64,000 bases of DNA, taken from Bacillota bacterium (GTDB taxonomy: Bacteria; Bacillota; Dehalobacteriia; UBA4068). The notes under the pieces are model-generated. The model saw nothing but the letters and a program-made list of their open reading frames with translations, was not told where the DNA came from and ran no database searches. Shown here one piece after another: positions 1 through 49,951 of the stretch; within the stretch, counting starts at the first letter, position 1; every line of letters starts with the position of its first letter. A program made the translations under genes and the position numbers. The stretch lies in assembly GCA_050949225.1 (NCBI GenBank), contig JBMNFI010000002.1:6100-70099 (forward strand), in the 5' to 3' direction.

Positions 1-3000
1 TTAACGCTTTGTGATGCCACACTGGAGGCTCCCATAGAGTTAAAGCTAACTGTATGAATCCTGGCTGCGGCACCAGGAGAGAATAATTCACCATTACCAT
101 TACCGGAGCTGGCATCAAAAGTAGCATAAGCTACTCCGCCGTTTCCGCCTGTAAAGACTGTGCCGTCTTTTAAGACAGCAATGTTCCAAATGTTATCAAA
201 GCCCGTTTGAGTCCAAGCGGCCTGACCATCAACAACTGTACTATTGTAATGGACGGGCGTGCTCTTTAGAGCAGCTTTATAGTATAGTCCATTACCTGTA
301 GTGCCAAACCATAGTCCATTGTTGGCATCAACTTTTACATAGCGAATTTCTACATCTGTTATAGATTCCAGTCCAGGCAAAAGATCATAGCCCGTATAAA
401 TCGTTCTATTGCCTGTTGGTGAAACATAGTCAACATAGCCGCCTTCAGTAAATAAAGAAGCACCGAAGGTTACGCCTGCCCTTACTACGTAAACACCGCC
501 ATTGGCATCAAGGGAAATACCACGTACCCACTGACCGGCAAAGGTTTGATGGGCAACAGCTTCATCAACGTAAGGTGTTACTTCACCTAAATTACTAATG
601 TAAGCATAGCCGCCTCTATAAACATTATTTGCTGCATCTACTTCATCAGGATAGCATCCGACCCAGGCACCGCCTTTTTGATCTAAGATAACGGTATTGA
701 CAGAGTTTGCCGGAATACCATCAGCCTTATTGTATTGAATCCAGGAATTATAAGCTGGATTATAAACCGAGACCCCTGTGCCATGACCGAACCAAACTTG
801 TCCATCAGAGTCTACTTTAACCTGTTGGACAAAGTCGCTGCCCAAACCATTATTGGTATTCTCCTGATTGAAGATGGTTATTTTATTATCTTTAAGATAA
901 GCAACACCTGCTGCATTATCTTGACTGCCTTGAGCAAACCAAACTCCACCTTCTGCATCCGGACAAATATCAACGATAGTGTTATTTAAAAGAGCAGGAG
1001 TGGATTGCTTGTGATAAGAACTCCAATTACCGTTGGCATCATGATAATAAGCACCGCCCATTAAGGTTCCAATCCACACGCCGCCGTTAGCATCGGGAAC
1101 AACACAACGGACATTACCGGCAAGCGGGATTTCTTGTGAATTCGTTTTCCACATGTTGAAGCTGTATGTGGTGGTACTGGAAGGAGTCACATCTACGCCC
1201 ATAACATTTTTCTGACAGTTCTGCCACTGTTTGGAATCTGTGCCTGCATTAATATTGGCATAGAGACGAATCTCGGCCTTGATCGAAGGATTATTTTTTA
1301 ATTCATCGCTAATATCCTGTCCGTTAACTTTATAAGCAATGAACATATTCTTAGCTGTTACATCGGCAAGATCCATATCCTTATAATCTGCGCCTTTTTC
1401 GCTGTTTTCAAAACCATCCTGGAAATTAAGCGTGATCGTGCCATTAGTGGCGGTGATTCCGGCATCCACCAATAAAGTGCTTAAAGATATACCTTCTACT
1501 GTATCAACTTCACCACTGACAGGATAAGTTTTAGTTTGCGCGGCAAAAGATTTGAGTTCTGTAAGGGTATAATCCTTAACTTTTGTTCCGTTAAGTTTAA
1601 GGGCGAAGGCTGAATCCTCCACAATCGGTGGGGTGACTCCCCCCTCGGTGACTTGGGCAACTACCATGTTTTTCAAACAGTTAAGCCAATCGGTGGCGCC
1701 GTCATTATGGTTACGATAGATTCTTACATAACCATATGTATCACTGCCCTTTTCTTTATCATAAACTAAGTTGCCGTCAACTACATAGGTAACCAGATAG
1801 TTTTTGCTTACCACATCACTGACAGAAATGTTTTCATATGTATCATGAGCATAGCCATCAGAAGTGATCAATTTGATTTTAGCATTCGCATCGGAGTTAT
1901 CAAGTCCTGCATCATACAGCAAGTCATCTAATTTGACACCGACTACACTGTCTGTATATTCAACGCTGGAGGAAAGATAACTATATTGTGATCTTTCCCA
2001 ACCCAGAGCTTTCAACTCATACAGTGAGTAAGATTTTAAGGTATTCCCCTCTTGGTCTTTGATGGCAAAAACATCAGCTACATCTGCTACAGGATAATCA
2101 GAGGGGGTCTCAAAGCCATTTGTGCCGCTACCGGGCAAAGATTCGCCAACAACGATACAGGTGGCATTTTTGATACATTTACCCTGTGATTCATGATAAA
2201 TTAAACGTAACAAGCCCTCCGTATTACCAACACTACCATCATAGCCGGGGTCTGTAGCCTTTTCGACAAAGGGTACACCTTCAACAGCATAGGCTAAAAT
2301 GACATTTCTCTTATCAGAAGAACTATTACCGGCGCCATTTAAAATAGCATCTACAATATTACCGGTAGGATAACCATCTCCGGAAATAACATTAACAGAA
2401 GTCGGAACACTGAGACCTTCCTTAAGTCCTATTTTTTGGAGTAATTTCCAAACATTAACACCTTGGAAGTTTTGATCTGTTACGGCAGTAAATTCACCTG
2501 TTTCAACAATATCATCCATGTCTTCCAAATCCCCTAAGGTCAAGGTTACAGGGGTTTTGATTTCTGAACCGGTAATTCTTAAAACAGGGATATCACGATA
2601 CTGTGAATATGGCTCAAAGTCATGCTTCCAATTTAATTGATCGGCGGCAGTAACTTCGATCTTTGTTACAGACCAAGCACAATTAACAGCATTATTTTCT
2701 GTTTCTGAGGTTTGACCTGTAACGACAGCCAAGGGACCGCCCTGATTTTCATAAGAGGCTTCATAGCCTTCATCAAGATCTGTCGGTACCAAGGGAAGTC
2801 CTTCGCTGACAGATGTTGTCGTATTGAGATTGGCGCCAAAGGCCAGCATCATTTTTAAATTACTGGTACCGGAAACGCTGTTTTGATAGTTGCTCTTACT
2901 TAATTCAGACATCGTGTACGTTTTGCTGGCACCATTATTATAGGTAACAACTATACCACTCGCATTAGCCTTTAAGCCTACCTCATTTTTGAGGAAATTA

Positions 3001-6000
3001 TATAAATCCAAGCCGCGATAACGGATTTCCTTGTCCGCATTACTGCTGCGCAGGTTATAAACGGCAGTGTTTTTATATGAACTCATTGCCTCTAGCTGGC
3101 TCACAGTAAAGCTTTTAGCGTTATTAACGCCATCACCTTCCACTGTCAGAACATTGTCCGCATAGGCATTATAGGGTTCAGACAAATGTGCATAAGAATC
3201 CGGCTCTAAGTTTACTACAATTTTACTTACATTATTTAAAGTTGCGCCGCTAGTATATCCGGTAATTTGCGGCAACACAAATTGCAAGGGGCCACCCTGG
3301 TTTTTGACCGTGAAACCGCTGTCATTCAAAACAGTGTTTGCTGTGTCATAGTTTACATAACCATTAGCATCTTTATTTAATACCAGAGGATAACCGTTTT
3401 TGGCAAAAGCCAGAACTGCCGACAGATTGTTTTTGCCGGTTTCAGAGCAAGAGCCAAGCTCACGCAAGTCATCCAGAGAAACTTCTACAGAGTTAGGTTC
3501 AGCCGCATCATCATAGAAGGTGACTGTACCGCTGTCTCCCGGCAGGCCGATTTTATTACTTAGCAGATACCAAAGGTTAACACCTTCATATAAATCGGCA
3601 TAACCCTTAACCATATAATAATTTTTGGCTTGAGCTTGTTTTTTCTGTGAAAAAGTGACAGCATTGCCATAAATCATTTTTTCCAGATCTTCAATGGTAT
3701 AATTCGTAATATCAGAAGAACCATTTATTTTAACTTCAACAGATAAACTATTATCTTTAAGTGCCTGATAGGCTCCTGAAGCACCTGCGTTATCATAGTG
3801 GGTGGAATAATTCACCACTTCCCCAATAGTAATATAATCCAACAGTTGTGTTTGATGTGAACCATTAGCATCACTATAGTTTTGTTTACCATGAATTAAA
3901 CGCAAAGGACCGCCGGAGTTGCTCAACCCCTTGTTATAGCCGGGGGAGGAACTGTTTACCACATAAGGATATTCATTAATACCATAGGCAATCAAAACCG
4001 GATAACCGGAATCAATGGGGTCCACAGTACTGGGATCAAAGCTTTCATCTATTCCATCAGCGGGATCTTTTTCAAAGAAAAAGAAGTTATCCGGATTGGA
4101 AATTTGCCCCAACTTAAAGTGTTGACTGCCTGTAAAGTTATCGCCGGCATGAGGGATCACGTTCGCATTAGCATTGGAAGTCGCAGCATCAGCTGGCAAA
4201 CCTGCCTTAAGCAGCAAATTATAAAGATCGATACCTCTATATTCATTGACATACCAGTACGAATTATTGGCCAAGCTATATTCGCCGGTGAGAATCAAAT
4301 CATTTAGGCCTTCCAGCTGCTCAACAGTCAGGTTAACCTCACGACCCAAAAGTGAGCCGTTTAGTGTTAAAATATGCTGCGTACTTGAAACATCATTATA
4401 AGGAGCTTTGTCATGTTCATAGCCGGGGGTAGAGTCTTCGGAAACATAAATATAGGCCATGTTGCCAAACTTCTTATTACCTCCACTGCCCTGATCATAA
4501 ACCAGCTTCACACAACCATCAGCATTATCTAAAGCACTGCTATACCAACTTGAGTATATCTCGCTGTCATAGATAAAGGGACGAGCATCAGTACCATTTC
4601 CGGTACCATAAGCAACGATTATCGGCTGATCAGTCGCATCTGCAGCAGCGACTTCAGCATAGGTAAAGGTAGCAATATCCTGACGATTACGGTTTTTGAT
4701 CGTAACCTTAGTACCTGTATCTAAGCGATTTGACTTATTATCCAAAAGATATTTTAATCTTACACCTTCATAAGTAAGCGTAGTAGCATTACCATTGCGG
4801 TAATCTGTATATTCACCACGGAAATAAGGTGCGCTGCCGGAAAGTCTTTCAATTTCCGCTATCGAAGGCATAGCCGAAGCACTGGTCCCCGGACCTTCAA
4901 TAGTCAAGGTTGCACCTGTTATAGCGGGAATATTGTACATATTACCCAACTCTTCATGATTAATGTGTTTATATTCACTGGTGGAAAAATCAATACCGCT
5001 GCCTGCCGTAATTTGGATTTCTGTTATCCCTTTTAACTGACGTGAACCATCAAACAAGGAAAGATAACCATTACCATTAACGGCATTTTTGTTTTCATAA
5101 ACAGCTTGCTTACTATCTGCATTATCACCAATTTCATAAGCCAAAACATACTCTTCTGCATTTGCACGAATATTAGCAACTGTTGTATTGGCAGCACTAT
5201 TATCATACGCATCATAAGAATGGAATTCTACAGTATCGTTATCATCGTAATCAGTTAACAAATCGGCCAGCTGTATTCCTGTATAAGCTTTGGTTGCCGT
5301 ACCTGCTTTGGTATTGTAAGAAGCTGTGCCTTGTACCCTTTCCATCATCAATATTTGAGCTCTTGTGTATTCGGATGTACCGATTTTTATGACCTTGTCC
5401 AGTTCATCACCTAAGCGTATTTTGCTTAAATATTTATTGAAACCGGAATTGTTAGCATCATACCAGGTTGCCTGCCCCATAATATTTTTCAAAACCGTTT
5501 TACCGGTATAATTAGTGGGAGTGCCTAATCCGGCAACAGTATCAGCTGTACTATCTGCCCAAGCAATCAAGGTAGAAACAGCAATAGGATCATTGCCGAC
5601 GGCTGTATTTGCCGGATTACCTGTATTTTGCGGATCACTGGGCGGGACGGAGCCATCATTTTTTGCCCAAACGGCGGTCGATAGATTAGGGAAATAATAT
5701 CTATTGTCATTATTAATAGTATATATCCAACTATCTGTTCCGTCTGCCTTAGGCTCAATAAAACTGATACCTCCATTATAGGCAGGTAGGGAAAAACCCG
5801 TATCGGCCAATAATGTGGACAATTCCACACCGGTAGCCCGTAAAAACCCGGTGAAACAATAAGTATTTAAAGTCGTATAGTCCTGTGTCTTAGCAGTCAT
5901 TGCCTGCAATTCCGACAGAGTGTAGGCCTTTTCATACTTGACATCAGACCCTAGTTCAGCTGCACCTTCCGTTGAGCCCAGACCTGATCCGGTAATCACC

Positions 6001-6125
6001 AAGACCGGCTGTTCTTTGCTCACGTCAGCTTGTGCCACAATCATGCCGCCCACAATCAGCGCAATAATCATGGCCATCACTAATAGCAACTTACCCGCGG
6101 CAAATCTCTTGCCTTTTTTGCTCAT
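1..6125 (-). CDS. Giant secreted multidomain protein, 3'-truncated by the window edge (>2,040 codons): signal peptide, nine tandem SUOX-fold / oxidoreductase molybdopterin-binding-like domains, C-terminal Reg_prop-type beta-propeller repeats
   Basis: Missing from the ORF track because the frame has no stop inside the window. The ATG is the complement of 6123-6125, with AAAGGAGG 8 nt upstream. Hand translation MSKKGKRFAAGKLLLVMAMIIALIVGGMIVAQA/DV... stays open down to position 3. Nine repeats of ~190 aa each carry YTLxEL-type, G(V/I)xLxxLL and GGPLRL-type blocks (e.g. EYRGIDLYNLLLKAGL at ~4200-4250, GGPLRLIHGK at ~3885-3915). From ~1170 to 1 there are repeats such as DANGGVWIGT and NNGLWFGTTGNGLYY. 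Confidence 0.85.
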   Translation of the reverse strand, partial: MSKKGKRFAAGKLLLVMAMIIALIVGGMIVAQADVSKEQPVLVITGSGLGSTEGAAELGSDVKYEKAYTLSELQAMTAKTQDYTTLNTYCFTGFLRATGVELSTLLADTGFSLPAYNGGISFIEPKADGTDSWIYTINNDNRYYFPNLSTAVWAKNDGSVPPSDPQNTGNPANTAVGNDPIAVSTLIAWADSTADTVAGLGTPTNYTGKTVLKNIMGQATWYDANNSGFNKYLSKIRLGDELDKVIKIGTSEYTRAQILMMERVQGTASYNTKAGTATKAYTGIQLADLLTDYDDNDTVEFHSYDAYDNSAANTTVANIRANAEEYVLAYEIGDNADSKQAVYENKNAVNGNGYLSLFDGSRQLKGITEIQITAGSGIDFSTSEYKHINHEELGNMYNIPAITGATLTIEGPGTSASAMPSIAEIERLSGSAPYFRGEYTDYRNGNATTLTYEGVRLKYLLDNKSNRLDTGTKVTIKNRNRQDIATFTYAEVAAADATDQPIIVAYGTGNGTDARPFIYDSEIYSSWYSSALDNADGCVKLVYDQGSGGNKKFGNMAYIYVSEDSTPGYEHDKAPYNDVSSTQHILTLNGSLLGREVNLTVEQLEGLNDLILTGEYSLANNSYWYVNEYRGIDLYNLLLKAGLPADAATSNANANVIPHAGDNFTGSQHFKLGQISNPDNFFFFEKDPADGIDESFDPSTVDPIDSGYPVLIAYGINEYPYVVNSSSPGYNKGLSNSGGPLRLIHGKQNYSDANGSHQTQLLDYITIGEVVNYSTHYDNAGASGAYQALKDNSLSVEVKINGSSDITNYTIEDLEKMIYGNAVTFSQKKQAQAKNYYMVKGYADLYEGVNLWYLLSNKIGLPGDSGTVTFYDDAAEPNSVEVSLDDLRELGSCSETGKNNLSAVLAFAKNGYPLVLNKDANGYVNYDTANTVLNDSGFTVKNQGGPLQFVLPQITGYTSGATLNNVSKIVVNLEPDSYAHLSEPYNAYADNVLTVEGDGVNNAKSFTVSQLEAMSSYKNTAVYNLRSSNADKEIRYRGLDLYNFLKNEVGLKANASGIVVTYNNGASKTYTMSELSKSNYQNSVSGTSNLKMMLAFGANLNTTTSVSEGLPLVPTDLDEGYEASYENQGGPLAVVTGQTSETENNAVNCAWSVTKIEVTAADQLNWKHDFEPYSQYRDIPVLRITGSEIKTPVTLTLGDLEDMDDIVETGEFTAVTDQNFQGVNVWKLLQKIGLKEGLSVPTSVNVISGDGYPTGNIVDAILNGAGNSSSDKRNVILAYAVEGVPFVEKATDPGYDGSVGNTEGLLRLIYHESQGKCIKNATCIVVGESLPGSGTNGFETPSDYPVADVADVFAIKDQEGNTLKSYSLYELKALGWERSQYSYLSSSVEYTDSVVGVKLDDLLYDAGLDNSDANAKIKLITSDGYAHDTYENISVSDVVSKNYLVTYVVDGNLVYDKEKGSDTYGYVRIYRNHNDGATDWLNCLKNMVVAQVTEGGVTPPIVEDSAFALKLNGTKVKDYTLTELKSFAAQTKTYPVSGEVDTVEGISLSTLLVDAGITATNGTITLNFQDGFENSEKGADYKDMDLADVTAKNMFIAYKVNGQDISDELKNNPSIKAEIRLYANINAGTDSKQWQNCQKNVMGVDVTPSSTTTYSFNMWKTNSQEIPLAGNVRCVVPDANGGVWIGTLMGGAYYHDANGNWSSYHKQSTPALLNNTIVDICPDAEGGVWFAQGSQDNAAGVAYLKDNKITIFNQENTNNGLGSDFVQQVKVDSDGQVWFGHGTGVSVYNPAYNSWIQYNKADGIPANSVNTVILDQKGGAWVGCYPDEVDAANNVYRGGYAYISNLGEVTPYVDEAVAHQTFAGQWVRGISLDANGGVYVVRAGVTFGASLFTEGGYVDYVSPTGNRTIYTGYDLLPGLESITDVEIRYVKVDANNGLWFGTTGNGLYYKAALKSTPVHYNSTVVDGQAAWTQTGFDNIWNIAVLKDGTVFTGGNGGVAYATFDASSGNGNGELFSPGAAARIHTVSFNSMGASSVASQSV

Positions 6126-6208
6126 TCTTATGTCCTCCTTTAATAATTTAAAATAAAAAGATTGCAAAATCATTAGTAGAATAGCATACAAAATCAACTT
6201 TATATGCT

Positions 6209-6245
6209 AAAAAAATAAGTACTCATGCAAAGAATAATGAGTACT
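6209..6245 (-). terminator. Intrinsic terminator; probable expression platform of the upstream riboswitch-like leader
   Basis: The minus strand reads AGTACTCAT, a 10-nt loop, ATGAGTACT, then TATTTTTTT. It begins 7 nt after the aptamer 3' end and lies ~85 nt before the giant CDS start. Confidence 0.75.
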
Positions 6246-6252
6246 CCGTTCC

Positions 6253-6370
6253 TACCAAATCCTTTCCAATCACGGGAGGTAAAAATGTTTCCACTTTTAC
6301 CCATCGGCCAAACCACCTTCTGTTTTCACAGGAAGGTAATAAAGCTCGGACAGTATTTAATTTGTCGGTA
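6253..6370 (-). promoter_or_regulatory. Candidate Moco (molybdenum cofactor) riboswitch aptamer, copy 1
   Basis: Minus-strand RNA: TACCGACAAAT-taaatactg-TCCGAGC-[ACCTTC(C)TGT gaaa ACAGAAGGT hairpin]-GCCgatGGGTAaaaGTGGAAACatttttACCTCCCGtgATTGGAAAGG-ATTTGGTA. The blocks UCCGAGC / GGAAAC / CCUCCCG / GGAAAGGA match my recollection of the Moco RNA motif core. A second copy at 17835-17948 keeps these blocks but has different stem sequences. Confidence 0.6.
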
Positions 6371-6459
6371 CTTTTATTCTGCCGCCCCCTTTCATGGCTA
6401 TTAACTAATAATAAACTCTATAAATTTTCATCCGGCAAAAAACTTATCATAAACTACTT

Positions 6460-7296
6460 TTAAGGCAGTTTACGGGCCTCATGCTTGTCCATTTCAAAGG
6501 CATACTGCTCGCCGGGGAAATTACCGCTTTTCACATCATCAATATATTCTTTATACGCACGACCGATTTCCGCACCGATATCGGCATATTTTTTCACAAA
6601 TTTGGGTACATGCCCTTGTGTATATCCCAAAAGATCATGACTGACCAAAACTTGACCATCACAAGCATTGCCAGCCCCAATGCCAATAGTCGGGATATCA
6701 ACATTTGCGGTAATCACTTTGGCAGCCTCAGAAGTGAGGCATTCTAAAACCAAGGAAAAAGCACCCGCCTCTTCAATGTCAACGGCCAGATCAACTATAG
6801 ACATCACAGCCGCTTCATCTTTACCTTGGACGCGATAACCACCCCATAGGGCAGCTGTTTGCGGCAATAGCCCCAAATGACCCATCACCGGAATGCCTGC
6901 ATCTACCAGATTTTTAATGGTCGGCAAAAGGGCAGAAGTGCATTCTATTTTTACCGCATCAGCACCACCCTTTTTGACCAAAAGCAGAGCGTTTTCTATC
7001 GCTCGTTCCGGGCTTATGTGATAAGATCCATAAGGCATATCGGCAACAACGATCGCCCGTTGTGCCGCTCTGGAAACGATTTGAGTATGGTATAACATAT
7101 CATTCATCGTTACAGGCATTGTCGATTGATAACCGGCAAAAACCATCCCCAATGAATCACCAACCAGCAACAAATCCATTCCCGCCTGATCAGCCAAGAC
7201 GGCCATGGTGTAGTCATAGGCGGTAACTACCGCTATTTTTTCTCCAGCCTCTTTTTTAGCTGTTAATTGAGCAATTGCTGTACCTTTATTAGACAT
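6460..7296 (-). CDS. panB: 3-methyl-2-oxobutanoate hydroxymethyltransferase (ketopantoate hydroxymethyltransferase)
   Basis: 278 aa. KIAVVTAYDYTMAVLADQAGMDLLLVGDSLGMV and the C-terminal FPGEQ region are typical PanB. GAGG lies upstream of the ATG. Confidence 0.9.
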   Translation of the reverse strand: MSNKGTAIAQLTAKKEAGEKIAVVTAYDYTMAVLADQAGMDLLLVGDSLGMVFAGYQSTMPVTMNDMLYHTQIVSRAAQRAIVVADMPYGSYHISPERAIENALLLVKKGGADAVKIECTSALLPTIKNLVDAGIPVMGHLGLLPQTAALWGGYRVQGKDEAAVMSIVDLAVDIEEAGAFSLVLECLTSEAAKVITANVDIPTIGIGAGNACDGQVLVSHDLLGYTQGHVPKFVKKYADIGAEIGRAYKEYIDDVKSGNFPGEQYAFEMDKHEARKLP

Positions 7297-14504: not shown

Positions 14505-15671
14505 GTGACTAAAACCATCTATTTTGATTGTCCTACCGGTCTTGCCGGTGATATGATCCTTGCCGCTTTACTTGATTGCGGGGCTGATCTTGATTACATT
14601 AAAGAACATTTATTGCGGCTGCAACTGCCCCCTTGGCAAATCTCCTGCCAAGAAACAATTAAGAACCAGCTGGCCGCTAAAAAACTGCAGATTTCTTATG
14701 AAAAAAGTCCTCAACACCGTCACTTGGCAGATATTGAACAGCTAATCATGGCGGCAAACTTTCCGGCCACAGCGGAAAAAACCGCTTTAGCTATTTTCAA
14801 TAAATTAGCGCAGGCGGAAGCGGCTGTCCATGGCACATCCACCGCTAAAGTTCATTTTCATGAAGTAGGAGCTACTGACGCTCTGATTGATATTTGCGGC
14901 AGTGCCTTGGCATTGGACTTTTTAGGAATCGAGAAGGTTTATTCTTCACCATTACCTTTATCTCATGGTTTTGTGACATGTGATCATGGCACCATTGCCA
15001 TACCGGCGCCTGCCGTTTTAGAGTTACTTAAAGGAGCAAAGCTCCGGCACTCCATGCTGAATGGAGAACTGATAACCCCTACAGGAGCGGCTATTTTGAT
15101 GACGATTATTGCCGACGACGGTTTTTTTGTTCCTGATTTTGTTTTACAAACGACCGGTCGCGGCGCCGGAAAAAGAGATTTACCGGTGGCTAATATTCTG
15201 CGTTTACATTTAGGAAGTACGACGAAAAAGGAAGCCGTTGATGTTCTAACATGCTGGATCGATGACAGTCAGCCCGAGTTTTTAGGCTATTTGTGGGAAA
15301 AAATGCTGGAAAACGACTCGGTTCTGGATATGGGTTACAGCCCTCTTTTTATGAAAAAAGGGCGCCCTGCATGGCAACTTTCCGTAATTACCATGGCAGG
15401 GTCTGCCGAAGAAATAGCCCAACTAATCATGGCAGAGACTTCAACTCTCGGTGTCCGCATCCGTCGTGAAAGACGATTAATCGCCCCACGATACAGCACC
15501 ACGGTAAAAACCCCTTATGGAACTATTGCCATTAAGGTAAGCAAAAAAGGGGCAAGCGTTAACGTCTCTCCGGAATTTTCCAGCTGCCAAAAGGCGGCTC
15601 AACAAACTGCTCAGCCACTAAAGGCTGTTTACCAGGCTGCTATTGCGGCTTATCTACAACAAAAAACTTAG
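14505..15671 (+). CDS. larC: LarC-family nickel insertion protein (DUF111)
   Basis: 388 aa. The N-terminal IYFDCPTGLAGDMILAALLDCGADL and the HFHEVGATDALIDICG motif are typical of LarC/DUF111. GTG start after AAAAGGAG. Confidence 0.8.
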   Translation: MTKTIYFDCPTGLAGDMILAALLDCGADLDYIKEHLLRLQLPPWQISCQETIKNQLAAKKLQISYEKSPQHRHLADIEQLIMAANFPATAEKTALAIFNKLAQAEAAVHGTSTAKVHFHEVGATDALIDICGSALALDFLGIEKVYSSPLPLSHGFVTCDHGTIAIPAPAVLELLKGAKLRHSMLNGELITPTGAAILMTIIADDGFFVPDFVLQTTGRGAGKRDLPVANILRLHLGSTTKKEAVDVLTCWIDDSQPEFLGYLWEKMLENDSVLDMGYSPLFMKKGRPAWQLSVITMAGSAEEIAQLIMAETSTLGVRIRRERRLIAPRYSTTVKTPYGTIAIKVSKKGASVNVSPEFSSCQKAAQQTAQPLKAVYQAAIAAYLQQKT

Positions 15672-16846: not shown

Positions 16847-17677
16847 TTATTGCATGACCAACATCGTTAAATAAAAATCTGTATTAGTCGTATTATTTTT
16901 TTTACGGATAGAAACACCAATATTTTTAGCGGAAGGGGAAAGGATGTTAGAATTTCCCTCCCCGGTAATTAATGCATCAAAAAAAGATTGAGCGGAGGGG
17001 AAACCATAGGCAATATTTTCCCCCACATTGCTTAGTCCGTATTGAGCCACCCTTTGCTCATAAGTACCATTAGTGGGCGAGTTATGACTAAAAAAGCCTT
17101 TTTCCGCCATGTCCTTAGAGTGAGCCTGCGCCATCATAATCAGGGTGTTATGATTACTAAAACTTTTTAAACCTTTATCCTTCCGATAATCGTTGACCAG
17201 TTTAATAAACTCCTTTTCTGTATCAGAGAGCGATAAAAGAACACCTGAATCCGTGATCATTACGGTTTTCGTCTTATTATTCCAGTTCACATTGGTTTTA
17301 AGGCTTTCTCCCACAAACCGAATAGGAACCAAGGTGCGCCCTTTAATCACTTTAGCAGGCACATCTAAAGTTATACTCTTGCCATTAACGGTAGTATTTG
17401 TTTTATTGAGGTAAAGGAGAATAATATCGGATCCTTTACTTAGAGTGACTTTTTTGGTTGAGCCCTGGTAATTAACGCAACAGCCAAGATTTTCGGCAAC
17501 AGCACGAACCGGCACCAGCACACGTCCTTGTTCAAGAACGGGCGCAACATCCGGTTGCAAAGTGGTACCGTTGACCACGACTTTTACCTCCTGTGTAGCT
17601 AAAGCAGGAACTATCGTCACAGCCATAATCAGGGCGCAAGCCAATATCACAATTAGGATTTTTTTATTCTTAAACAT
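16847..17677 (-). CDS. Secreted protein with copper-amine-oxidase-N-terminal-like (stalk) repeats and a C-terminal CAP/SCP (YkwD-like) domain
   Basis: Signal peptide MFKNKKILIVILACALIMAV. VVVNGTTLQPDVAPVLEQGRVLVPVRAVAENLG and TVNGKSITLDVPAKVIKGRTLVPIRFVGESL are Cu_amine_oxidN1-type. AQAHSKDMAEKGFFSHNSP is CAP-type. Start trimmed to 17677 (AAGGAGG upstream). Confidence 0.7.
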   Translation of the reverse strand: MFKNKKILIVILACALIMAVTIVPALATQEVKVVVNGTTLQPDVAPVLEQGRVLVPVRAVAENLGCCVNYQGSTKKVTLSKGSDIILLYLNKTNTTVNGKSITLDVPAKVIKGRTLVPIRFVGESLKTNVNWNNKTKTVMITDSGVLLSLSDTEKEFIKLVNDYRKDKGLKSFSNHNTLIMMAQAHSKDMAEKGFFSHNSPTNGTYEQRVAQYGLSNVGENIAYGFPSAQSFFDALITGEGNSNILSPSAKNIGVSIRKKNNTTNTDFYLTMLVMQ

Positions 17678-17793
17678 GGAGACCTCCTTAAAAGATTCTC
17701 TCCAACGGCTAAACAAACTTCATCTGTAGAGATTTATATTCTAGAAATAAATGTCAGATCCTTTATTTACATAAATTTATTAAAATAAAAAAC

Positions 17794-17834: not shown

Positions 17835-17948
17835 AGATTTACAAATTGTCCGAAGCTGTTTGACCTAAAGTAAAAACCATGGCAAACAGCCACTGGGTAG
17901 CAGTGGAAACGCTTCTATCTCCCGCATTGGAAAGGATGATATTGATCT
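17835..17948 (+). promoter_or_regulatory. Candidate Moco riboswitch aptamer, copy 2 (no coding gene downstream)
   Basis: AGATTTACAAAT-tg-TCCGAAGC-[GCTGTTTG...CAAACAGC hairpin]-CactGGGTAgcaGTGGAAACgcttctATCTCCCGcATTGGAAAGGatgatATTGATCT. It has the same conserved blocks, in the same order, as copy 1. The helix sequences differ (closing helix AGAT/ATCT here, TACC/GGTA in copy 1). Confidence 0.6.
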
Positions 17949-17955
17949 GTAATTT

Positions 17956-17993
17956 ACAGGTTATTTTCCGATGTGGAAAATAACCTGTTTTTT
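17956..17993 (+). terminator. Intrinsic terminator directly after aptamer copy 2
   Basis: ACAGGTTATTTTCC-gatgt-GGAAAATAACCTGT followed by TTTTTT. It starts 7 nt after the aptamer 3' end, the same spacing as in copy 1. Confidence 0.8.
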
Positions 17994-18049: not shown

Positions 18050-18102
18050 AGGATAAGCATGAAGCATTGCTTTTAGCAGGAAGCAATGCTTCTGCCTATC
18101 CT
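18050..18102 (+). other. Long near-perfect stem-loop in an ORF-less spacer
   Basis: AGGATAAGCA-t-GAAGCATTGCTT (loop ttagcagg) AAGCAATGCTTC-TGCCTATCCT: 12 perfect bp plus 10 bp with one mismatch and one bulge. There is no flanking U-run on either strand. Confidence 0.6.
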
Positions 18103-18197: not shown

Positions 18198-18233
18198 CAA
18201 ACAGGAACTTTTAAAAGTTCCTGTTTGTTTTTT
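18198..18233 (+). terminator. Intrinsic terminator closing the ORF-less region
   Basis: CAAACAGGAACTT-ttaa-AAGTTCCTGTTTG (13 bp perfect) followed by TTTTTT. Confidence 0.8.
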
Positions 18234-18253
18234 ACCCTTTCGTAAACGAACTC

Positions 18254-18321: not shown

Positions 18322-19461
18322 ATGTTCAATTATAAAAACAATCCCGATGAAAATCGTTTTGCTACTCTGGCGAAAAATTTAGTAAGCTATTCCTGTGAAT
18401 TAAAGCCCGGGGATAATGTCCTCTTGGATTTACCTGCCGGAGAGGAGGCCTTTGGGCAAGAATTGATCAAAGCCGTTTATCAGGCAGGAGCGCTGCCTTT
18501 TTTAACTTACAATAACGATGTTTTAACCAAAGAATGGTTAGCGCAAATTAGCGAAAAACAACTGAAACTGGAAGCCCTTTGGCAAGTCAAACGCATGGAA
18601 CAAATGCAGGCATATATTGGCGTAAGGGCCAAAGAAAACATCTATGAGCTTGCCTCTGTTCCGGATGAAAAAAAACGCTTACACAGTTTATTGCTATCAC
18701 ACCCTGTTCATCATGACATTAGGGTTAAAAAAACCAAGTGGGTCATCTTGCGCTACCCCAATCCCTCAATGGCACAAGAGGCAAAGATGTCCACAGAAAA
18801 TTTCCGTGATTTCTATTTTAACGTTTGTAATCTTGACTATGCCAAAATGTCACGTGCGATGGATCCGCTGGTAGGGCTCATGAATAACACTGACCGGGTA
18901 AAAATCTTGGCACCGGGGACCGATCTGCGCTTTTCTATCAAAGGAATTGCTGCCATTAAATGCGACGGTAAACGCAACATTCCCGACGGAGAAGTTTACA
19001 CAGCTCCCGTCAAAGATTCGGTAGAGGGTTTTATCACTTATAACGCTCCCTCTCCGCATGAAGGTCAAGTATACACTAATATTAACTTAGAATTTTCCAA
19101 AGGACAGATCGTAAATGCTGATGCCGGGAACTTAACGGAGTCTTTGCATAAAATCTTAGACACCGATAAAGGCGCGCGTTATATTGGTGAATTTGCCATC
19201 GGCTTAAACCCTTATATTATGCATCCTGCTAATGATATTCTTTTTGATGAAAAGATCCACGGCAGTTTCCATTTCACACCCGGGGCCAGCTATGAGGATG
19301 CTTTTAATGGTAATGAAAGCGCCATACATTGGGATTTGGTGAAAATTTTACGCTCTGATTATGGTGGGGGCGAAATCTACTTTGATGAGCAGCTGATTCA
19401 AAAGGATGGTCAATTCTGTCTACCTGAGCTGGCAGGGTTGAATCCGAAAAACTTATTATAA
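18322..19461 (+). CDS. Aminopeptidase, M29 family (AmpS / aminopeptidase T-like)
   Basis: 379 aa. The N-terminal LAKNLVSYSCELKPGDNVLLD and the C-terminal IGEFAIGLNP...HFTPG pattern are typical of thermophilic-metalloprotease M29 enzymes. AAAAAGGAG RBS. Confidence 0.75.
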   Translation: MFNYKNNPDENRFATLAKNLVSYSCELKPGDNVLLDLPAGEEAFGQELIKAVYQAGALPFLTYNNDVLTKEWLAQISEKQLKLEALWQVKRMEQMQAYIGVRAKENIYELASVPDEKKRLHSLLLSHPVHHDIRVKKTKWVILRYPNPSMAQEAKMSTENFRDFYFNVCNLDYAKMSRAMDPLVGLMNNTDRVKILAPGTDLRFSIKGIAAIKCDGKRNIPDGEVYTAPVKDSVEGFITYNAPSPHEGQVYTNINLEFSKGQIVNADAGNLTESLHKILDTDKGARYIGEFAIGLNPYIMHPANDILFDEKIHGSFHFTPGASYEDAFNGNESAIHWDLVKILRSDYGGGEIYFDEQLIQKDGQFCLPELAGLNPKNLL

Positions 19462-41185: not shown

Positions 41186-42067
41186 TTAAAAATGCACATC
41201 CGGTAAAAGTTGCTCTAAGAGACGCTCCAGATCCTCCGTATCGTAATATTCTATAACAATTTTCCCACCTTTTTTGCCTTGCTCCAAAGAAACTTTAGTA
41301 GCCAATTTTTCTCGTAAATGCTTAGTAATATCCTGCACCATTAGATCATTATCCCCAGATTTTTGACGTCTGTGGGTTGGTTTTTTTTCCACAATTTGGC
41401 CACTTAACAAGTGTGCTGAAAATTCGGTTTGCCTCACTGACAATCCCTCAGCAATAACCCTTTGAGCCAGCTTATTCTGGTCATCGACCTTATCTAAGGA
41501 TAAAATAGCCCGGCCATGTCCGGCCGTCAAGCGACCATTAATTAACATCGCTTGCACCGAAGGGCTCAATGACAACAGCCTTAACGTGTTAGCAACATGA
41601 GGTCGACTTTTACCCAGTCGAGAGGCCAGTTCTTTTTGTGTATAGCCAAATTCATTTTGTAGCTTTTGATAGGTTTGAGCCTCTTCTAAAACATTGAGAT
41701 CCTCTCTCTGAATATTTTCTATTAAAGAAAACTCGGTAATTTGTCCCTCGCTTAGCTGTCTTACAATACAGGGGATCTCCTGTAGACCTGCCATTATAGC
41801 GGCTCGCCACCGTCGCTCTCCTGCGACAATCTCATATCTTTTACCCTTTTCCACCACAATAATCGGCTGCAAAAGCCCAAACTCCTTAATAGAGTCTGAC
41901 AATTCTTGCAACTTGTCTTCAGCAAAAAACTTGCGCGGCTGATCAGGATTAGAGTCAATCTTTTTTACACTTAAAAGGGTAATCTGTTCCCCTTCCAAAA
42001 GCTCCTCATTTTTGTACTCACCCATCAAGGCAGAAAGTCCTTTTCCCAAACTTCTTTTTGCCATCAT
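41186..42067 (-). CDS. spo0J: Chromosome partitioning protein ParB/Spo0J
   Basis: RSLGKGLSALM..., LLQPIIV and GERRWRAA are the ParB boxes. The start is ambiguous among TTG 42070, ATG 42067 and ATG 42064. It overlaps the soj stop. Confidence 0.92.
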   Translation of the reverse strand: MMAKRSLGKGLSALMGEYKNEELLEGEQITLLSVKKIDSNPDQPRKFFAEDKLQELSDSIKEFGLLQPIIVVEKGKRYEIVAGERRWRAAIMAGLQEIPCIVRQLSEGQITEFSLIENIQREDLNVLEEAQTYQKLQNEFGYTQKELASRLGKSRPHVANTLRLLSLSPSVQAMLINGRLTAGHGRAILSLDKVDDQNKLAQRVIAEGLSVRQTEFSAHLLSGQIVEKKPTHRRQKSGDNDLMVQDITKHLREKLATKVSLEQGKKGGKIVIEYYDTEDLERLLEQLLPDVHF

Positions 42068-42843
42068 CAATCCTCCCGTTCCTTTTGTGATGCCAAAAAC
42101 TCCTCCGCAAGCTGCTCATAACATTCGGCGCCTTTTGATTTGGCATCATAATGAAGTATCGGCAAACCATGGCTGGGCGCCTCTGACAACCTAATGCTGC
42201 GCGGAATAACAGTTTGATACACTTTTTCGGCAAAAAAACCCCGAGCCTCTTCTGCAACTTCCTGTGAAAGATTGGTGCGCCCATCAAACATGGTCAAAAG
42301 CACACCCTCCAAATCCAAAGAAGAGTTAAGATGTCTCTTTACCAAATCAAAGGTGTTCATCAACTGACTGACGCCCTCCAGGGCATAATACTCGCACTGT
42401 AAAGGGATGACAATACTATCGGCCGCCGTTAAAGCATTAAGGGTCAACAATCCTAAGGATGGCGGACAATCAAAAAAAACGTAATCATACTTATCTTTCA
42501 GCGGACGCAAAGCCTTTTTTAGCTTTGATTCACGAGAAATAGCGGAAACCAACTCTATTTCTGCACCTGCTAGCTGAATAGTTGCCGGCAAAAGGTCTAA
42601 ATTACTAAACTGGCTGGCAATTGTTACGGATTCGGCCGGAGCACCATTAATCAACACATCATAAATGCAATGCTGTAGCCTTCTTCGATCAACCCCCAGA
42701 CCACTGGTAGCATTCCCTTGCGGATCCATATCAACTAAAAGCACCTTTTTACCTTTATCGGCTAAATATGCAGACAGATTGACTACAGTAGTAGTTTTAG
42801 CCACTCCACCTTTTTGATTTACCACAGCAATAGTTTTCGTCAT
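42067..42843 (-). CDS. soj: Chromosome partitioning ATPase ParA/Soj
   Basis: MTKTIAVVNQKGGVAKTTT contains the deviant Walker A. Start trimmed to the ATG at 42843. Confidence 0.92.
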   Translation of the reverse strand: MTKTIAVVNQKGGVAKTTTVVNLSAYLADKGKKVLLVDMDPQGNATSGLGVDRRRLQHCIYDVLINGAPAESVTIASQFSNLDLLPATIQLAGAEIELVSAISRESKLKKALRPLKDKYDYVFFDCPPSLGLLTLNALTAADSIVIPLQCEYYALEGVSQLMNTFDLVKRHLNSSLDLEGVLLTMFDGRTNLSQEVAEEARGFFAEKVYQTVIPRSIRLSEAPSHGLPILHYDAKSKGAECYEQLAEEFLASQKERED

Positions 42844-42985
42844 TTTGCACCGCCAACTTAACAAAAATTTCTACATAATCTACATAATAAAATCATTCCA
42901 CATGCTATCGGCTTAATCCTGCCAAAAATCGCTTCTACATTTTTATTTCCACAAGCGCGCTTCATTTATAACTACCAACAACGCT

Positions 42986-43693
42986 CTATAAAGGATGTTT
43001 TTGCGGCTTGCCTGCACGGCGTGGGTATTTTCCAGGGCAATCACTTATTTTTTTCACCACAACGAGACTCCGCAGTTCCTCTTTATCGGGTAACATCAAC
43101 TGCTTCAAGTCATCAATCCGGCCACCTAAAAGACTTAATGCCTGCTGAGAGGCAGCAATCTCTTCTTCAACAGATGGCCCTTTCATCGCCAAAAAATAAC
43201 CGCCACCGGCCACAAAGGGCAAACTGCACTCCAAAAGAGATGGCAAAGGACTTACCGCACGTGCTACCACTACATCAAATTTTTCTCGCAAATTATCCTG
43301 ATACGCTGCCACCTCAGCACGAGAGCATAAAACCTCTACGTTAGAAAGGCCTAATTCTTTTTTTACCTGCCATAAAAAACCACAACGCTTTTGTAAAGAA
43401 TCCAACAAGATCCAGCTGCTGGCAGGTTGCATAATTGCTGCCGGAACACCGGGAAAACCCGCCCCACTGCCTACATCAAGACACCGTGAGCCTGCAGCAA
43501 TCTGTGGAAGAATCAGTAACGAATCCAGATAATGCTTAATGAGCGCTTCTTTTGAGTCAGTGATGGCTGTAAGATTGAATTTAGAGTTGGTCTCCATGAC
43601 CATGTGCCAATGTTTTTCCATAAGTTGCGCTTGTTCCGCATTGAGATCAATCCCCATTAATCCAGCTTGTTTTTTCAGTTCTTCAATAAACAT
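42986..43693 (-). CDS. rsmG: 16S rRNA (guanine527-N7)-methyltransferase
   Basis: 235 aa with LDVGSGAGFPGVPAAI and NLTAI motifs. Located between mnmG and soj. Confidence 0.9.
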   Translation of the reverse strand: MFIEELKKQAGLMGIDLNAEQAQLMEKHWHMVMETNSKFNLTAITDSKEALIKHYLDSLLILPQIAAGSRCLDVGSGAGFPGVPAAIMQPASSWILLDSLQKRCGFLWQVKKELGLSNVEVLCSRAEVAAYQDNLREKFDVVVARAVSPLPSLLECSLPFVAGGGYFLAMKGPSVEEEIAASQQALSLLGGRIDDLKQLMLPDKEELRSLVVVKKISDCPGKYPRRAGKPQKHPL

Positions 43694-43706
43694 TTAGACA
43701 CCTCTT

Positions 43707-43722
43707 TGTTTCATGTGAAACA
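43707..43722. other. parS centromere-like site (1 mismatch to consensus)
   Basis: TGTTTCATGTGAAACA against TGTTNCACGTGAAACA. Located in the mnmG-rsmG spacer. Confidence 0.6.
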
Positions 43723-43730
43723 TTTATTAT

Positions 43731-45650: not shown

Positions 45651-45680
45651 CAATGTCCCCTCTGAATTGTTTAATATCGA

Positions 45681-47075: not shown

Positions 47076-47125
47076 AATATTTTCTTTCTCTATAATATTA
47101 TTTGTTCTGCAGATTGTTTTTTAAT

Positions 47126-47157: not shown

Positions 47158-47162
47158 TTCTG

Positions 47163-49946: not shown

Positions 49947-49951
49947 AGAGC

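Follow-up and report, generated by a model that had tools for sequence, protein, structure and literature searches.

What is a riboswitch of the Moco RNA motif doing in front of the gene for a giant surface protein? The question is raised by a 64,000-nucleotide stretch of Bacillota DNA, here termed the window, in which an earlier note had recognized a Moco riboswitch-like leader upstream of a minus-strand gene encoding an array of SUOX-fold domains. A riboswitch names the metabolite to which gene expression is tuned and is thus a pointer to the role of its target. Taken as an RNA, the element is one more P3-less Moco/Tuco riboswitch and leaves the understanding of riboswitches unchanged. The riboswitch itself is ordinary, but its target is not, as the giant protein belongs to an undescribed, widespread Clostridia system. 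On balance, the locus is probably best read as a P3-less Tuco/Moco OFF switch that governs the surface part of a Mo/W acquisition system repressed by the cofactor.

The RNA was identified by a cmscan of the whole window against 4,227 Rfam families. RF01055 (the Moco RNA motif) matches at 6363..6243 on the minus strand with 70.1 bits (E = 7e-15) against a gathering score of 36. This match is far beyond chance and is full-length, covering model positions 1-135 of 135. A covariance model built for this study (R1) scores the same aptamer at 99 bits. R1 was obtained by projecting the Rfam structure onto the alignment, because RNAalifold, when applied to six MAFFT-aligned aptamers, mis-paired P1 (UCCGAG with UUGGAA). 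The conserved blocks, outer helix, and hairpin with U-run that had been read by eye are all present on the minus strand. UCCGAGC (6349-6343) is found together with the P2 hairpin, GCC..GGGUA and GUGGAAAC, in that order, and with the blocks ACCUCCCG (6280-6273) and AUUGGAAAGGA (6270-6260). When the leader is aligned to the RF01055 consensus, the junction positions of the model are occupied by UCCGAGC, GCC, GGG, the GGAAAC loop, CCUCCCG and GGAAAGG, so the blocks fall where the proposed identity places them. Outside the conserved core, P1 is extended by UACC[gac]AAAU (6360..6370, minus strand), which pairs with AUUUGGUA (6253-6260) and is retained in a constrained fold. The leader folds with an energy z of -4.0 relative to shuffles. 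The aptamer (6243..6363, minus strand) comprises P1, P2, P4 with a GAAA loop, and P5, and the model positions of P3 are deleted. The element is a genuine Moco RNA motif of the variant form that has no stem P3.

The missing stem bears on the ligand. P3 was absent from 58 of the 176 original Moco RNA examples, and the P3-less architecture was associated with Tuco by a published correlation rather than by a binding measurement, direct binding having been beyond the reach of the founding paper because the cofactor is unstable (Regulski 2008, PMC2408646). Following that correlation, the ligand of the window's aptamer is likely the tungsten-pyranopterin cofactor (Tuco), and otherwise Moco.

The association of this RNA with the giant gene extends well beyond the window. 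Among 66 species loci whose upstream DNA is long enough, 46 have an aptamer on the gene strand, which in 32 lies directly in front of the gene (less than 400 nt from the start); in the other 20, no aptamer was found across 3 kb or more upstream. Five of six metagenome loci also bear the aptamer, and P3 is absent from 66 of 66 related aptamers. As had been anticipated for a genuine motif member, homologous leaders covary: across 64 distinct homologous sequences, compensatory changes are seen at 31 of 37 pairs. The covariation score is 0.596, compared with 0.227 for shuffles (0 of 500 reach the observed value) and at most 0.158 for slid partners, on an alignment that was fitted to the model and so favors the structure somewhat. 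The pairing of a P3-less aptamer with the giant gene is conserved across Clostridia.

Immediately downstream lies an intrinsic terminator (6209..6246, minus strand; hairpin -10.3 kcal/mol), which begins 6 nt past P1. Its arms, GAGUACUCAU and AUGAGUACUU (6246-6237 and 6226-6217), form a 10-bp stem with a 10-nt loop, followed by an A at 6216 and a U7 run at 6215-6209. The hairpin and U-run noticed by eye are thus a terminator placed after the aptamer. A simple terminator scan missed this hairpin only because the scan allows loops of up to 8 nt. Another 84 nt separate the terminator from the start codon of the giant gene, whose ribosome-binding site (AAGGAGG, 6140-6134) and ATG (6125-6123) span 6123..6140 on the minus strand. 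A promoter scan of 5900-6700 returned none, and the sole candidate by eye is a weak TTGCCG-17-TTTATT at 6438-6410.

The earlier note had proposed that folding might reveal an antiterminator, and a near-isoenergetic alternative was found that involves the 5ʹ flank. The candidate strand AGAAUAAAAGUACCG (6366..6380, minus strand), which overlaps the outer strand of P1, is able to base-pair with CGGAGUACUCAUUAUUCU (6231-6248), the 5ʹ arm plus loop of the terminator. This duplex has an energy of -9.6 kcal/mol, compared with -4.8 +/- 1.9 kcal/mol in shuffles, 23 of 1,000 of which reach that value (p about 0.02-0.04), a moderate improvement on chance. The antiterminator state of the leader (-47.5 kcal/mol) lies within 0.4 kcal/mol of the state with P1 and terminator (-47.9 kcal/mol), and the minimum-energy fold retains aptamer and terminator together. 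Two other pairings were discarded. The usual pairing of GGAAAGG with the terminator 5ʹ arm is weak in the window, being no better than chance (z = -0.8), and a CCUCCCGU/ACGGAG pairing considered by eye is absent from the computed folds of the window leader. The window leader probably uses its 5ʹ flank, rather than the 3ʹ block of the aptamer, as antiterminator.

Among the relatives, the anatomy is clearer than in the window. Of 62 related leaders, 56 have a terminator, and in 40 of these 56 the conserved 3ʹ block of the aptamer (GGAAAGGA/GAAAAGGAG) shows complementarity to the 5ʹ arm of the terminator, with a mean pairing energy of -10.7 versus -5.6 kcal/mol and a median z of -2.6. This arrangement points to an OFF switch. 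The Moco RNA of Escherichia coli is likewise an OFF switch (PMC2408646), and in Eubacterium limosum, where two of five Tuco riboswitches use terminators, the operons under terminator-type P3-less riboswitches rise under W limitation (PMC11725836). The window leader is likely a transcription-termination OFF switch that silences the giant surface protein gene when cofactor is plentiful. With cofactor bound, the extended P1 would form, leaving the terminator arm free, and transcription would halt at 6209-6215. When cofactor is limiting, the terminator 5ʹ arm would instead be base-paired to the 5ʹ flank or to other segments of the aptamer, allowing polymerase to enter the gene. Under an OFF switch, the giant gene would therefore be made when cofactor is scarce.

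It could be argued that the window's aptamer is decayed or inert, that its hairpin is a constitutive attenuator and that its pairing with the giant gene is historical only. The weak antiterminator of the window leader fits such an account, as does a second P3-less RF01055 aptamer in the window (17836-17953, plus strand; 59.1 bits by cmscan), which shows that such elements can lack an obvious target. This apparently orphan copy has a strong terminator (stem 17956-17988, U run 17989-17993; whole element 17836..17993), and neither a gene nor a remnant was found downstream of it by ORF listing, blastx or blastn. For the leader of the giant gene, however, an inert copy is very improbable given a full-length 70-bit match with all conserved junctions intact, two states at most 0.4 kcal/mol apart, and conservation of the aptamer in 46 loci.

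The gene under this control (1..6125, minus strand) is truncated by the window edge, with 2,041 aa visible; the full product (P0001) has 2,214 aa and ends in the wall-associated domains Flg_new and Cu_amine_oxidN1. It begins with a Sec-type signal peptide, MSKKGKRFAAGKLLLVMAMIIALIVGGMIVAQA (6027..6125, minus strand), without a twin arginine, in line with the secretion that had been predicted for it, and 40 of 42 family members likewise have a signal peptide without the twin-arginine motif. Residues 23-1640 (1206..6059, minus strand) consist of tandem degenerate SUOX-fold (PruR-like) repeats. Self-BLAST of the protein returned the identity match only, and the repeats were found instead by phmmer and jackhmmer; jackhmmer, applied to both the protein and its family, delimits nine, the number originally proposed. 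Pfam PF00174 matches with a summed E of 5e-17 and a summed score of 62.3, no single stretch passing alone. An AlphaFold2 model of aa 366-765 (pLDDT 79) retrieves exclusively SUOX-fold proteins among Foldseek PDB matches with E < 0.1. PruR is first among them (E = 4.5e-5, TM 0.67), at a sequence identity of 15-17%. When a profile of two aligned repeats was searched against PDB sequences, no SUOX match emerged, so the relationship is visible by fold comparison only. The repeats are followed by a Reg_prop beta-propeller (Pfam PF07494; aa 1640-2041+; 3..1205, minus strand), which resembles the sensor propellers of PDB 4a2l and 3v9f (E = 1e-21).

Although the SUOX fold proposed for the repeats stands, Moco binding in the enzymatic sense does not, as conserved cysteine is lacking and PruR is the best match. 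No invariant or near-invariant Cys occurs in 36 aligned proteins, and the repeat HMM has no Cys column. A Mo-ligand Cys is conserved in none of the 7-11 repeats across 42 proteins, as judged from sequence alignments, the repeat HMM and a pattern search. In the window protein, five repeats with a G[VI]x[LV] anchor were found by pattern, with no Cys upstream of the anchor; in repeat 1, C90 sits 9 residues before G99 and is not conserved. Some family members have a single Cys in 1,400 residues. Sec export, moreover, precludes prior loading of a cofactor in the cytoplasm. It is moderately likely that the giant protein is not a Moco enzyme.

The protein also contains a probable flavin attachment site. 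The sequence PAITGATLT (aa 400-408; 4902..4928, minus strand) corresponds to the [S/T]GA[S/T] recognition motif of the flavin transferase ApbE as defined in PMC8238504. Its columns I402, T403, A405, T406, L407 and T408 are invariant in the family, and D.ITGATLT[IV]EGPG is present once in 38 of 42 family proteins, the window protein having Pro at the first motif position where relatives have Asp. The gene for ApbE itself sits immediately 5ʹ of the giant gene in operons of the Syntrophomonas type, and tblastn places ApbE in 15 of 85 loci. With moderate likelihood, the product is a Sec-exported, wall-anchored protein made up of nine Cys-less PruR-like domains, a probable covalent-FMN site and a beta-propeller.

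Further indications of function come from the operons of relatives. An importer is present in 35 of 41 long loci, as either an ABC system (21) or an ECF system (14), the two being mutually exclusive in these loci. The ABC type is of the IsdE/BtuF class, to which its substrate-binding protein is nearest, and is accompanied by ExbB/DUF2149. Importer operons separate from the giant gene bear their own P3-less aptamers. Other operon partners are a small SUOX-like lipoprotein, ApbE, FMN_bind-SUOX fusions, MobB and DUF4405, and genes for MobB and the tungsten enzyme AFOR are neighbors, often near the relatives' operons. It is moderately likely that the relatives' giant genes are transcribed together with those for the importer, the lipoprotein, ApbE, the fusions and MobB. 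No homologs of ApbE, the importer or MobB were found within the window's 64 kb, beyond which the downstream side of the giant gene lies, and no Mo/W gene emerged when most of the window's remaining genes (ORFs outside about 52.8-63.4 kb) were scanned with Pfam and NCBIfam. Because the genes that follow the giant gene are outside the window, its membership in the full system is inferred from relatives with 33-41% identity. No NCBIfam model scored above its cut-off for any core component, and a literature search, which was not exhaustive, found neither a described Moco/Tuco importer nor the family of the giant protein. The conserved partners (importers, ApbE and MobB) argue for acquisition rather than catalysis, and the giant protein acts, with moderate likelihood, at the cell surface as part of an acquisition system that the cofactor represses.

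Catalysis would be expected if the repeats were true Moco/Tuco-binding domains of an extracellular oxidoreductase, with the riboswitch coupling apoprotein synthesis to the cofactor as an ON switch or by fine-tuning. The ECF/ABC system could then deliver the cofactor outward, as FmnA/EetB does for FAD in Listeria. Consistent with this are the SUOX fold and PF00174 similarity, and the resemblance of the probable FMN site, FMN_bind-SUOX fusions, DUF4405 and ApbE to an extracytosolic electron-transfer chain. Cofactor-using enzymes are among the known targets of Moco RNAs (PMC2408646), and cofactor export by ECF systems has precedent (PMC9973259). Such an enzyme is nevertheless quite unlikely: besides the unconserved Mo-ligand Cys and the use of Sec rather than Tat, the nearest structure is the non-enzymatic PruR, the relatives' expression platforms have OFF-switch anatomy, and an ABC type with a substrate-binding lipoprotein is the mark of an importer. 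The related proposal that synthesis of an extracellular apoprotein is tied to cofactor supply survives in part. The riboswitch and the secreted SUOX-fold array are there, but an apoprotein waiting for Moco sits poorly with degenerate, PruR-like repeats without conserved Cys, with Sec export and with relatives whose OFF anatomy is the opposite of what it calls for.

If the system imports, the substrate might instead be iron or another metal, acquired by flavin-based extracytosolic reduction, with the Tuco riboswitch adjusting the supply of iron to what Fe-rich tungstoenzymes demand, as has been proposed for riboswitch-controlled transporters of E. limosum. FecCD/Peripla_BP_2 systems are usually annotated as iron-siderophore or heme transport, and flavinylated extracytosolic systems are often tied to iron reduction (PMC8238504). 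Two P3-less riboswitches of E. limosum, moreover, control FecCD-type "Fe ABC" transporters that were read as iron importers, and cell iron is higher when both transporter operons are up (PMC11725836). This explanation is unlikely, since an OFF switch would cut iron uptake exactly when cofactor, and hence demand from holo-enzyme, is high. Neither Fur-type nor siderophore genes accompany the system, whose partners are SUOX/PruR-like domains, MobB and AFOR. The FecCD family also includes MolBCA, an importer of molybdate and tungstate, and the alternative ECF module, which comes with a SUOX-like lipoprotein, favors Mo/W or a pterin as the substrate.

Under the preferred reading of a cofactor-repressed Mo/W acquisition system, the domain array would capture Mo/W species outside the cell and pass them to the lipoprotein and on to the importer, in the manner of the NEAT heme relay of Isd. 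The captured species may be the pyranopterin cofactor, a precursor, or a metal oxyanion. The more specific proposal that the PruR-like array and covalent flavin capture Moco/Tuco or a pterin precursor from microbes or the host, for transfer through the lipoprotein to the ABC/ECF importer, is possible but rather doubtful; if true, it would amount to bacterial Moco/Tuco salvage by a machine of anaerobic Gram-positive bacteria. To our knowledge, the general view is that neither Moco nor Tuco is acquired as a nutrient. Capture and relay by the SUOX-like repeats also leave unexplained the redox chemistry suggested by the flavinylation motif and FMN_bind/DUF4405.

Across Clostridia from gut, rumen and digester, in no fewer than 46 species-level genomes, the riboswitch marks the giant protein and importer operons as part of a tungsten/molybdenum-cofactor economy. 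Carrier genomes number 119, and cultured carriers include Lutispora saccharofermentans m25, Christensenella sp. MSJ-20 and Syntrophomonas wolfei. The riboswitch provides a testable handle on the ligand of Cys-less extracellular SUOX-fold domains, on the cargo of the "iron-type" ABC and the orphan ECF (PF09819) transporters under Tuco riboswitches, and on whether bacterial scavenging extends to the pyranopterin cofactor or stops at the metal. Short-chain fatty acid production has recently been linked to the use of tungsten by anaerobes of the gut, and the giant-protein system may therefore matter in gut ecology.

Several known systems share parts of this arrangement. Gram-positive heme acquisition by Isd relies on NEAT-domain surface proteins that relay heme, the IsdE lipoprotein and the IsdF permease, under the control of Fur. 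The likeness is an analogy of architecture only: both systems have wall-anchored repeated ligand-binding domains, a Peripla_BP_2 lipoprotein, a FecCD permease and nutrient repression, but Isd uses NEAT domains and Fur, whereas the giant-protein system has SUOX-like domains and a riboswitch, and its relay is a proposal only. SUOX-family molybdoenzymes (sulfite oxidase, SorA and YedY/MsrP) share their fold with the repeats, but they also have a conserved Mo-ligand Cys and cytoplasmic cofactor loading (being cytoplasmic or Tat-exported), and the repeats have neither. ApbE-flavinylated extracytosolic proteins likewise feature a single [S/T]GA[S/T] motif and FMN_bind partners (Meheust et al. 2021, PMC8238504). 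In that survey, which mentions no molybdenum or SUOX-type partners, the motif lies in FMN_bind, DUF2271 or DUF3570 domains, whereas ITGAT occupies a linker that precedes a SUOX-like repeat.

PruR is a degenerate SUOX-fold protein that binds free pterins in the periplasm of Agrobacterium and other Proteobacteria (PDB 7kom, 7kos, 7kou and 7rkb; PMC11194511). Like the repeats, it lacks the Mo-ligand cysteine and is Sec-exported, serving as an extracytoplasmic ligand binder rather than an enzyme. PruR-type proteins are also marked by a Pro-Trp motif where a cysteine hairpin would otherwise be. PruR is, however, a single domain of about 150 aa whose partner is the diguanylate cyclase-phosphodiesterase DcpA, and no DGC/PDE gene was found in any examined locus. 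Proteins of the giant family instead carry 7-11 domains in one wall-anchored chain, are encoded next to importers, occur in Gram-positive bacteria and are riboswitch-controlled. Despite the resemblance, the window protein is not to be classed as an orthologue of PruR.

The Tuco riboswitches of E. limosum are also P3-less RF01055 elements in a Clostridial species, and the FecCD-type transporters there resemble the ABC module of the window-related loci, although no giant SUOX-repeat protein was reported (PNAS 2024, PMC11725836). With the Moco RNA motif as a whole, the window element shares sequence and structure over the entire model, covariation, a 5ʹ-UTR location and an intrinsic-terminator platform; it differs from the E. 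coli moaA example, in which stem P3 is present. The usual targets of the motif are moa/mod/tup genes or recognized Mo/W enzymes, whereas here the target is a cell-surface protein of more than 2,200 aa. An example may already have been in view, as Syntrophomonas wolfei was described with three P3-less copies in an operon with "genes of unknown function" (PMC2408646); that operon is probably the giant-protein system, to be compared with L026, a locus with three aptamers.

The leader of the giant gene (minus-strand coding sequence 1..6125, cut by the window edge) spans 334 nt of the minus strand and separates the stop codon of panB (6460..7296; PF02548) from the ATG at 6125. When the 64-kb window was scanned against 4227 Rfam families, only two matches exceeded the gathering score, and both were to RF01055, the Moco RNA motif. 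With 70.1 bits (gathering score, 36; E = 7e-15), the aptamer in the leader (6363..6243, minus strand) covers model positions 1-135 of 135; its identity is confirmed far beyond chance. In the Rfam alignment, the conserved junctions of the model are occupied by UCCGAGC, GCC, GGG, the P4 GGAAAC loop, CCUCCCG, and GGAAAGG, whereas hairpin P3 is deleted in both window aptamers and is the sole part of RF01055 without a counterpart. The outer P1 helix, UACC[gac]AAAU / AUUUGGUA (minus strand), is followed 6 nt later by a terminator hairpin (6246-6237 / 6226-6217, minus strand) of 10 bp with a 10-nt loop, then A and U7. All the sequence blocks from which an earlier note had proposed a Moco-riboswitch-like leader are thus present at the coordinates it gave, as are its hairpin and U-run. 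A simple terminator scan passed over the hairpin solely for its loop length. Beyond the terminator lie an AAGGAGG ribosome-binding site (69 nt) and the ATG (84 nt).

The second RF01055 aptamer (17836..17953, plus strand; 59.1 bits) is followed by a very strong terminator (17956-17993), for which a good antiterminator pairing, GGAAAG/UUUUCC, is available. The approximately 330 nt past it hold no ORF of at least 42 aa on either strand and no similarity to related loci, but contain two more hairpins (about 18061-18100 and 18200-18235); an M29 aminopeptidase gene begins at 18322. This aptamer may be an orphan riboswitch, control a small RNA, or act on the peptidase at long range. Adjoining it, a divergent gene (16847-17716, minus strand) encodes a secreted protein with CAP/SCP and Cu_amine_oxidN1 domains, the latter of which also ends the giant protein. 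Elsewhere in the window are a homologue of LarC, of nickel-pincer cofactor biosynthesis (14505-15671, plus strand), with neither larB nor larE identified among the scanned neighbouring ORFs, and the chromosomal origin region (41186-52264). The latter contains yidC, jag, mnmE, mnmG/gidA, rsmG/gidB, and parA/parB on the minus strand and dnaA (50744-52264) on the plus strand, which places the giant gene approximately 45 kb from oriC.

The pairing of aptamer and gene is conserved. The giant protein has 42 relatives (32-39% identity), all from Firmicutes assemblies and either unnamed or termed "hypothetical protein" or "S-layer homology domain-containing protein." Of six independent loci (the window and five metagenome contigs), five have RF01055 on the same strand as the giant gene, either just ahead of it or ahead of the gene that opens its operon. 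With one genome scanned per species, 119 species carry a relative, and the 80 loci retrieved from them are all from Clostridia (Anaerovoracaceae, Mogibacterium, Lentihominibacter, Syntrophomonas, Lutispora, Proteiniborus, Christensenella, Oscillospiraceae, and Peptococcaceae). Searching the window and 85 loci with a covariance model, made from six aptamers that had been assigned the Rfam structure, yielded 66 aptamers; 65 are on the gene strand, and P3 is missing from all 66. Among the 66 genome loci with sufficient upstream DNA, the aptamer is at most 400 nt from the giant-gene start in 32, farther upstream within a same-strand operon in 14, and absent upstream in 20. The homologous leaders also covary, with compensatory changes at 31 of 37 base pairs across 64 distinct aptamers. 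The covariation score is 0.596; shuffles give 0.227, with none of 500 attaining the observed value, and slid partners give no more than 0.158. The margin is large, even if an alignment fitted to the model somewhat favours the structure. The aptamer thus withstands all three refutation checks that the earlier note had named. Two core variants occur in the alignment of related aptamers (A3, columns 184/199), CCUCCC..GGAAAGG (n = 42) and CCUUCC..GAAAAGG (n = 21), which differ by a compensatory C-G to U-A change in P5, adjoining the presumed binding core. The second variant is mostly found in Lutispora, Clostridiaceae, and Tissierellales, immediately upstream of the giant gene.

A hairpin and U-run lie approximately 0-70 nt from the aptamer in 56 of 62 non-redundant leaders. 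In 40 of these 56, the terminator 5ʹ arm can form a strong duplex with the conserved 3ʹ block of the aptamer, as in GAAAAGGAGU with ACUUCUUUUU (mean -10.7 kcal/mol vs -5.6 for shuffled arms; median z -2.6). This pairing in the relatives is, as predicted from sequence, a classical OFF-switch antiterminator: ligand binding would sequester the 3ʹ block and allow the terminator to form. Published work points the same way: the Moco RNA of E. coli is an OFF switch (PMC2408646), and in Eubacterium limosum, operons under the two terminator-type P3-less riboswitches rise at tungsten limitation (PMC11725836). In the window leader, the same pairing is weak (z = -0.8). An alternative strand, AGAAUAAAAGUACCG (6380-6366), consists of the 15 nt that flank the aptamer on its 5ʹ side; it overlaps the outer P1 strand and is able to pair with the terminator 5ʹ arm and loop at -9.6 kcal/mol, which 23 of 1000 shuffles reach (-4.8 ± 1.9 kcal/mol). 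The two states of this leader are near-isoenergetic (P1 plus terminator, -47.9 kcal/mol; antiterminator, -47.5). The window riboswitch is probably an OFF switch, with the 5ʹ flank as the candidate for its exact antiterminator. That its aptamer is an inert relic is very improbable given the intact core and the balance of alternative folds.

The giant ORF runs for 2041 codons without a stop, from 6125 to the window edge. The complete product, 2214 aa in the protein collection, starts with a Sec-type signal peptide and has wall-associated Flg_new and Cu_amine_oxidN1 domains at the C-terminus. Jackhmmer, run on the protein itself and on its 42 relatives, resolves residues 23-1640 into nine tandem repeats, each 135-215 aa long; the rest is a Reg_prop beta-propeller. 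The repeats are jointly assigned to PF00174 in Pfam (summed E = 5e-17; no repeat passes singly), the molybdopterin-binding domain of the sulfite-oxidase family. An AlphaFold2 model of two repeats (residues 366-765; pLDDT 79, pTM 0.76) matches only SUOX-fold proteins in the PDB, with PruR, a pterin-binding protein of the periplasm, first (7kom; E = 4.5e-5, TM 0.67 on target), followed by the sulfite dehydrogenases SorA and SorT, nitrate reductase, and YedY. The repeat count and these matches bear out the nine SUOX-fold domains of the earlier note. The repeats also weakly match NCBIfam NF041762, "GEGP motif-containing diheme protein" (E = 2e-12 to 6e-6, far below cut-off), in the window protein (aa 1003-1083) and at 18584-19111 and 3690-5633 of a related locus (L004), which suggests that NF041762 holds a related domain around its G-E-G-P strand, comparable to TIEGPG in the giant family.

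In SUOX enzymes, molybdenum is ligated by a conserved cysteine, and extracytoplasmic Moco enzymes are taken across the membrane already folded, via Tat. Across 36 aligned family proteins, no Cys is invariant or near-invariant, the repeat HMM has no Cys column, and no Cys stands upstream of the G[VI]x[LV] anchor in the five window-protein repeats where the pattern located it. The lone Cys near an anchor, C90 in repeat 1 (9 residues before G99), is not conserved, and three relatives have one Cys each within their first 1400 residues. Moreover, the twin-arginine motif is missing from 40 of 42 family N-termini, and a Sec substrate of 2200 residues is threaded through the membrane unfolded and therefore cannot bring a cofactor along. 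The window protein's repeats differ in these respects from ordinary Moco domains. Precedent exists in PruR, likewise a cysteine-less, Sec-exported SUOX fold, which binds free pterins and is not an enzyme (PMC11194511). Between repeats 2 and 3, an invariant D.ITGATLT[IV]EGPG is found in single copy in 38 of 42 family proteins (PAITGATLT in the window protein, aa 400-408). The motif [S/T]GA[S/T] receives covalent FMN from the flavin transferase ApbE in extracytosolic redox proteins (PMC8238504), and ITGAT also occurs within FMN_bind domains encoded beside related giant genes. The giant family thus carries a probable flavin site.

The window edge cuts off the genes downstream of the giant gene, so the picture of the system is drawn from relatives, in which it is consistent: their genes form transcription units with importer genes under this class of riboswitch. 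Among 41 loci of at least 22 kb, 21 encode a FecCD / ATPase / Peripla_BP_2 ABC importer and 14 an ECF-type module (PF09819 membrane protein, two ATPases, and CbiQ); the two occur together in none of these 41 and in 1 of all 85 loci. A SUOX-like lipoprotein of 158-187 aa belongs to both kinds of module in the operons examined, where a Big_2 protein also accompanies the ABC module; an ExbB-like and DUF2149 pair does so in 17 of the 21 ABC-type loci. The ECF module usually also has MobB, an FMN_bind-SUOX-like fusion lipoprotein, DUF4405, and ApbE. Importer operons apart from the giant gene have their own P3-less aptamer (L010 3831, L056 2015, L051 4174, and L053 4193). In Syntrophomonas, the operon order is ApbE, giant, SLH protein, PF09819, SUOX-like lipoprotein, ATPases, CbiQ, and MobB; one such MAG (L026) has aptamers at 2689, 8025, and 8510, two immediately upstream of the ApbE-giant operon and the third approximately 5 kb farther upstream, before a separate gene set. 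This operon is very probably the S. wolfei "triple arrangement" operon with "genes of unknown function" of Regulski et al. (PMC2408646). Two aptamers each are present in L051, L053, L056, L010, L027, and L058, and two P3-less aptamers approximately 130 nt apart precede one gene in L020 (6967-7338). The ExbB/MotA-like proton-channel and DUF2149 genes lie inside the ABC operons (L001 3198-4134; L002 17971-18976; L006 19308-20283), beside a type II ABC importer in monoderm gram-positives without an outer membrane. No NCBIfam model names any core component of the system, and the substrate-binding protein is closest to IsdE and BtuF, below both cut-offs.

Neighbours in related loci include the tungsten enzyme aldehyde:ferredoxin oxidoreductase (AFOR), a MoaD/ThiS-like protein, and MobB. 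P3-less members track tungsten-cofactor genes almost perfectly, and Tuco sensing was proposed for them (Regulski et al.; PMC2408646), a view followed in the E. limosum study (PMC11725836). This correlation and these neighbours make Tuco the best guess for the ligand. An iron-acquisition system, as read for the E. limosum "Fe ABC" operons, would suit the transporter family but seems rather unlikely here, being a poor match to the OFF logic and to the SUOX, MobB, and AFOR partners. The earlier note's own model, true extracellular Moco domains whose synthesis is tied to cofactor supply, gains from the redox partners, yet it is distinctly doubtful in view of the missing cysteine, Sec export, OFF-type platforms, and an importer with a binding lipoprotein. 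Its secreted SUOX-fold protein stands; Moco binding and supply coupling are weakened.

A repressible operon for a multi-domain surface binder, a lipoprotein, and an importer has the logic of an acquisition system. With pyranopterin cofactor plentiful, transcription would stop at 6209-6215; with cofactor scarce, the giant protein would be made. The ligand acquired would be whatever the cell is short of at low Tuco or Moco. One candidate is a metal oxyanion; the FecCD family contains the molybdate/tungstate importer MolBCA. The other is a pterin species, up to the cofactor itself, a live possibility because the domains resemble PruR and because vitamin uptake typically shows such switching between ABC and ECF importers. 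An electron-transfer step, unexplained by a relay from binder to importer, is implied by the probable flavin site together with the FMN_bind, DUF4405, and ApbE partners; its role might be to preserve a reduced pterin or dithiolene, or to free the ligand.

The window RNA belongs to a known class on a standard platform, and the novelty lies in its target gene. A non-exhaustive literature search found no description of the protein family, of a riboswitch-controlled SUOX-repeat surface protein, or of a bacterial Moco/Tuco importer. The pairing is a solid, conserved lead to a W/Mo system, as yet uncharacterised, in gut and digester anaerobes. Moco uptake is documented for C. elegans only, and most organisms are unable to take it up according to a review. 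For the conjectured acquisition mechanism of the protein, the closest analogy is Isd heme capture, in which NEAT-domain proteins feed IsdE/IsdF.
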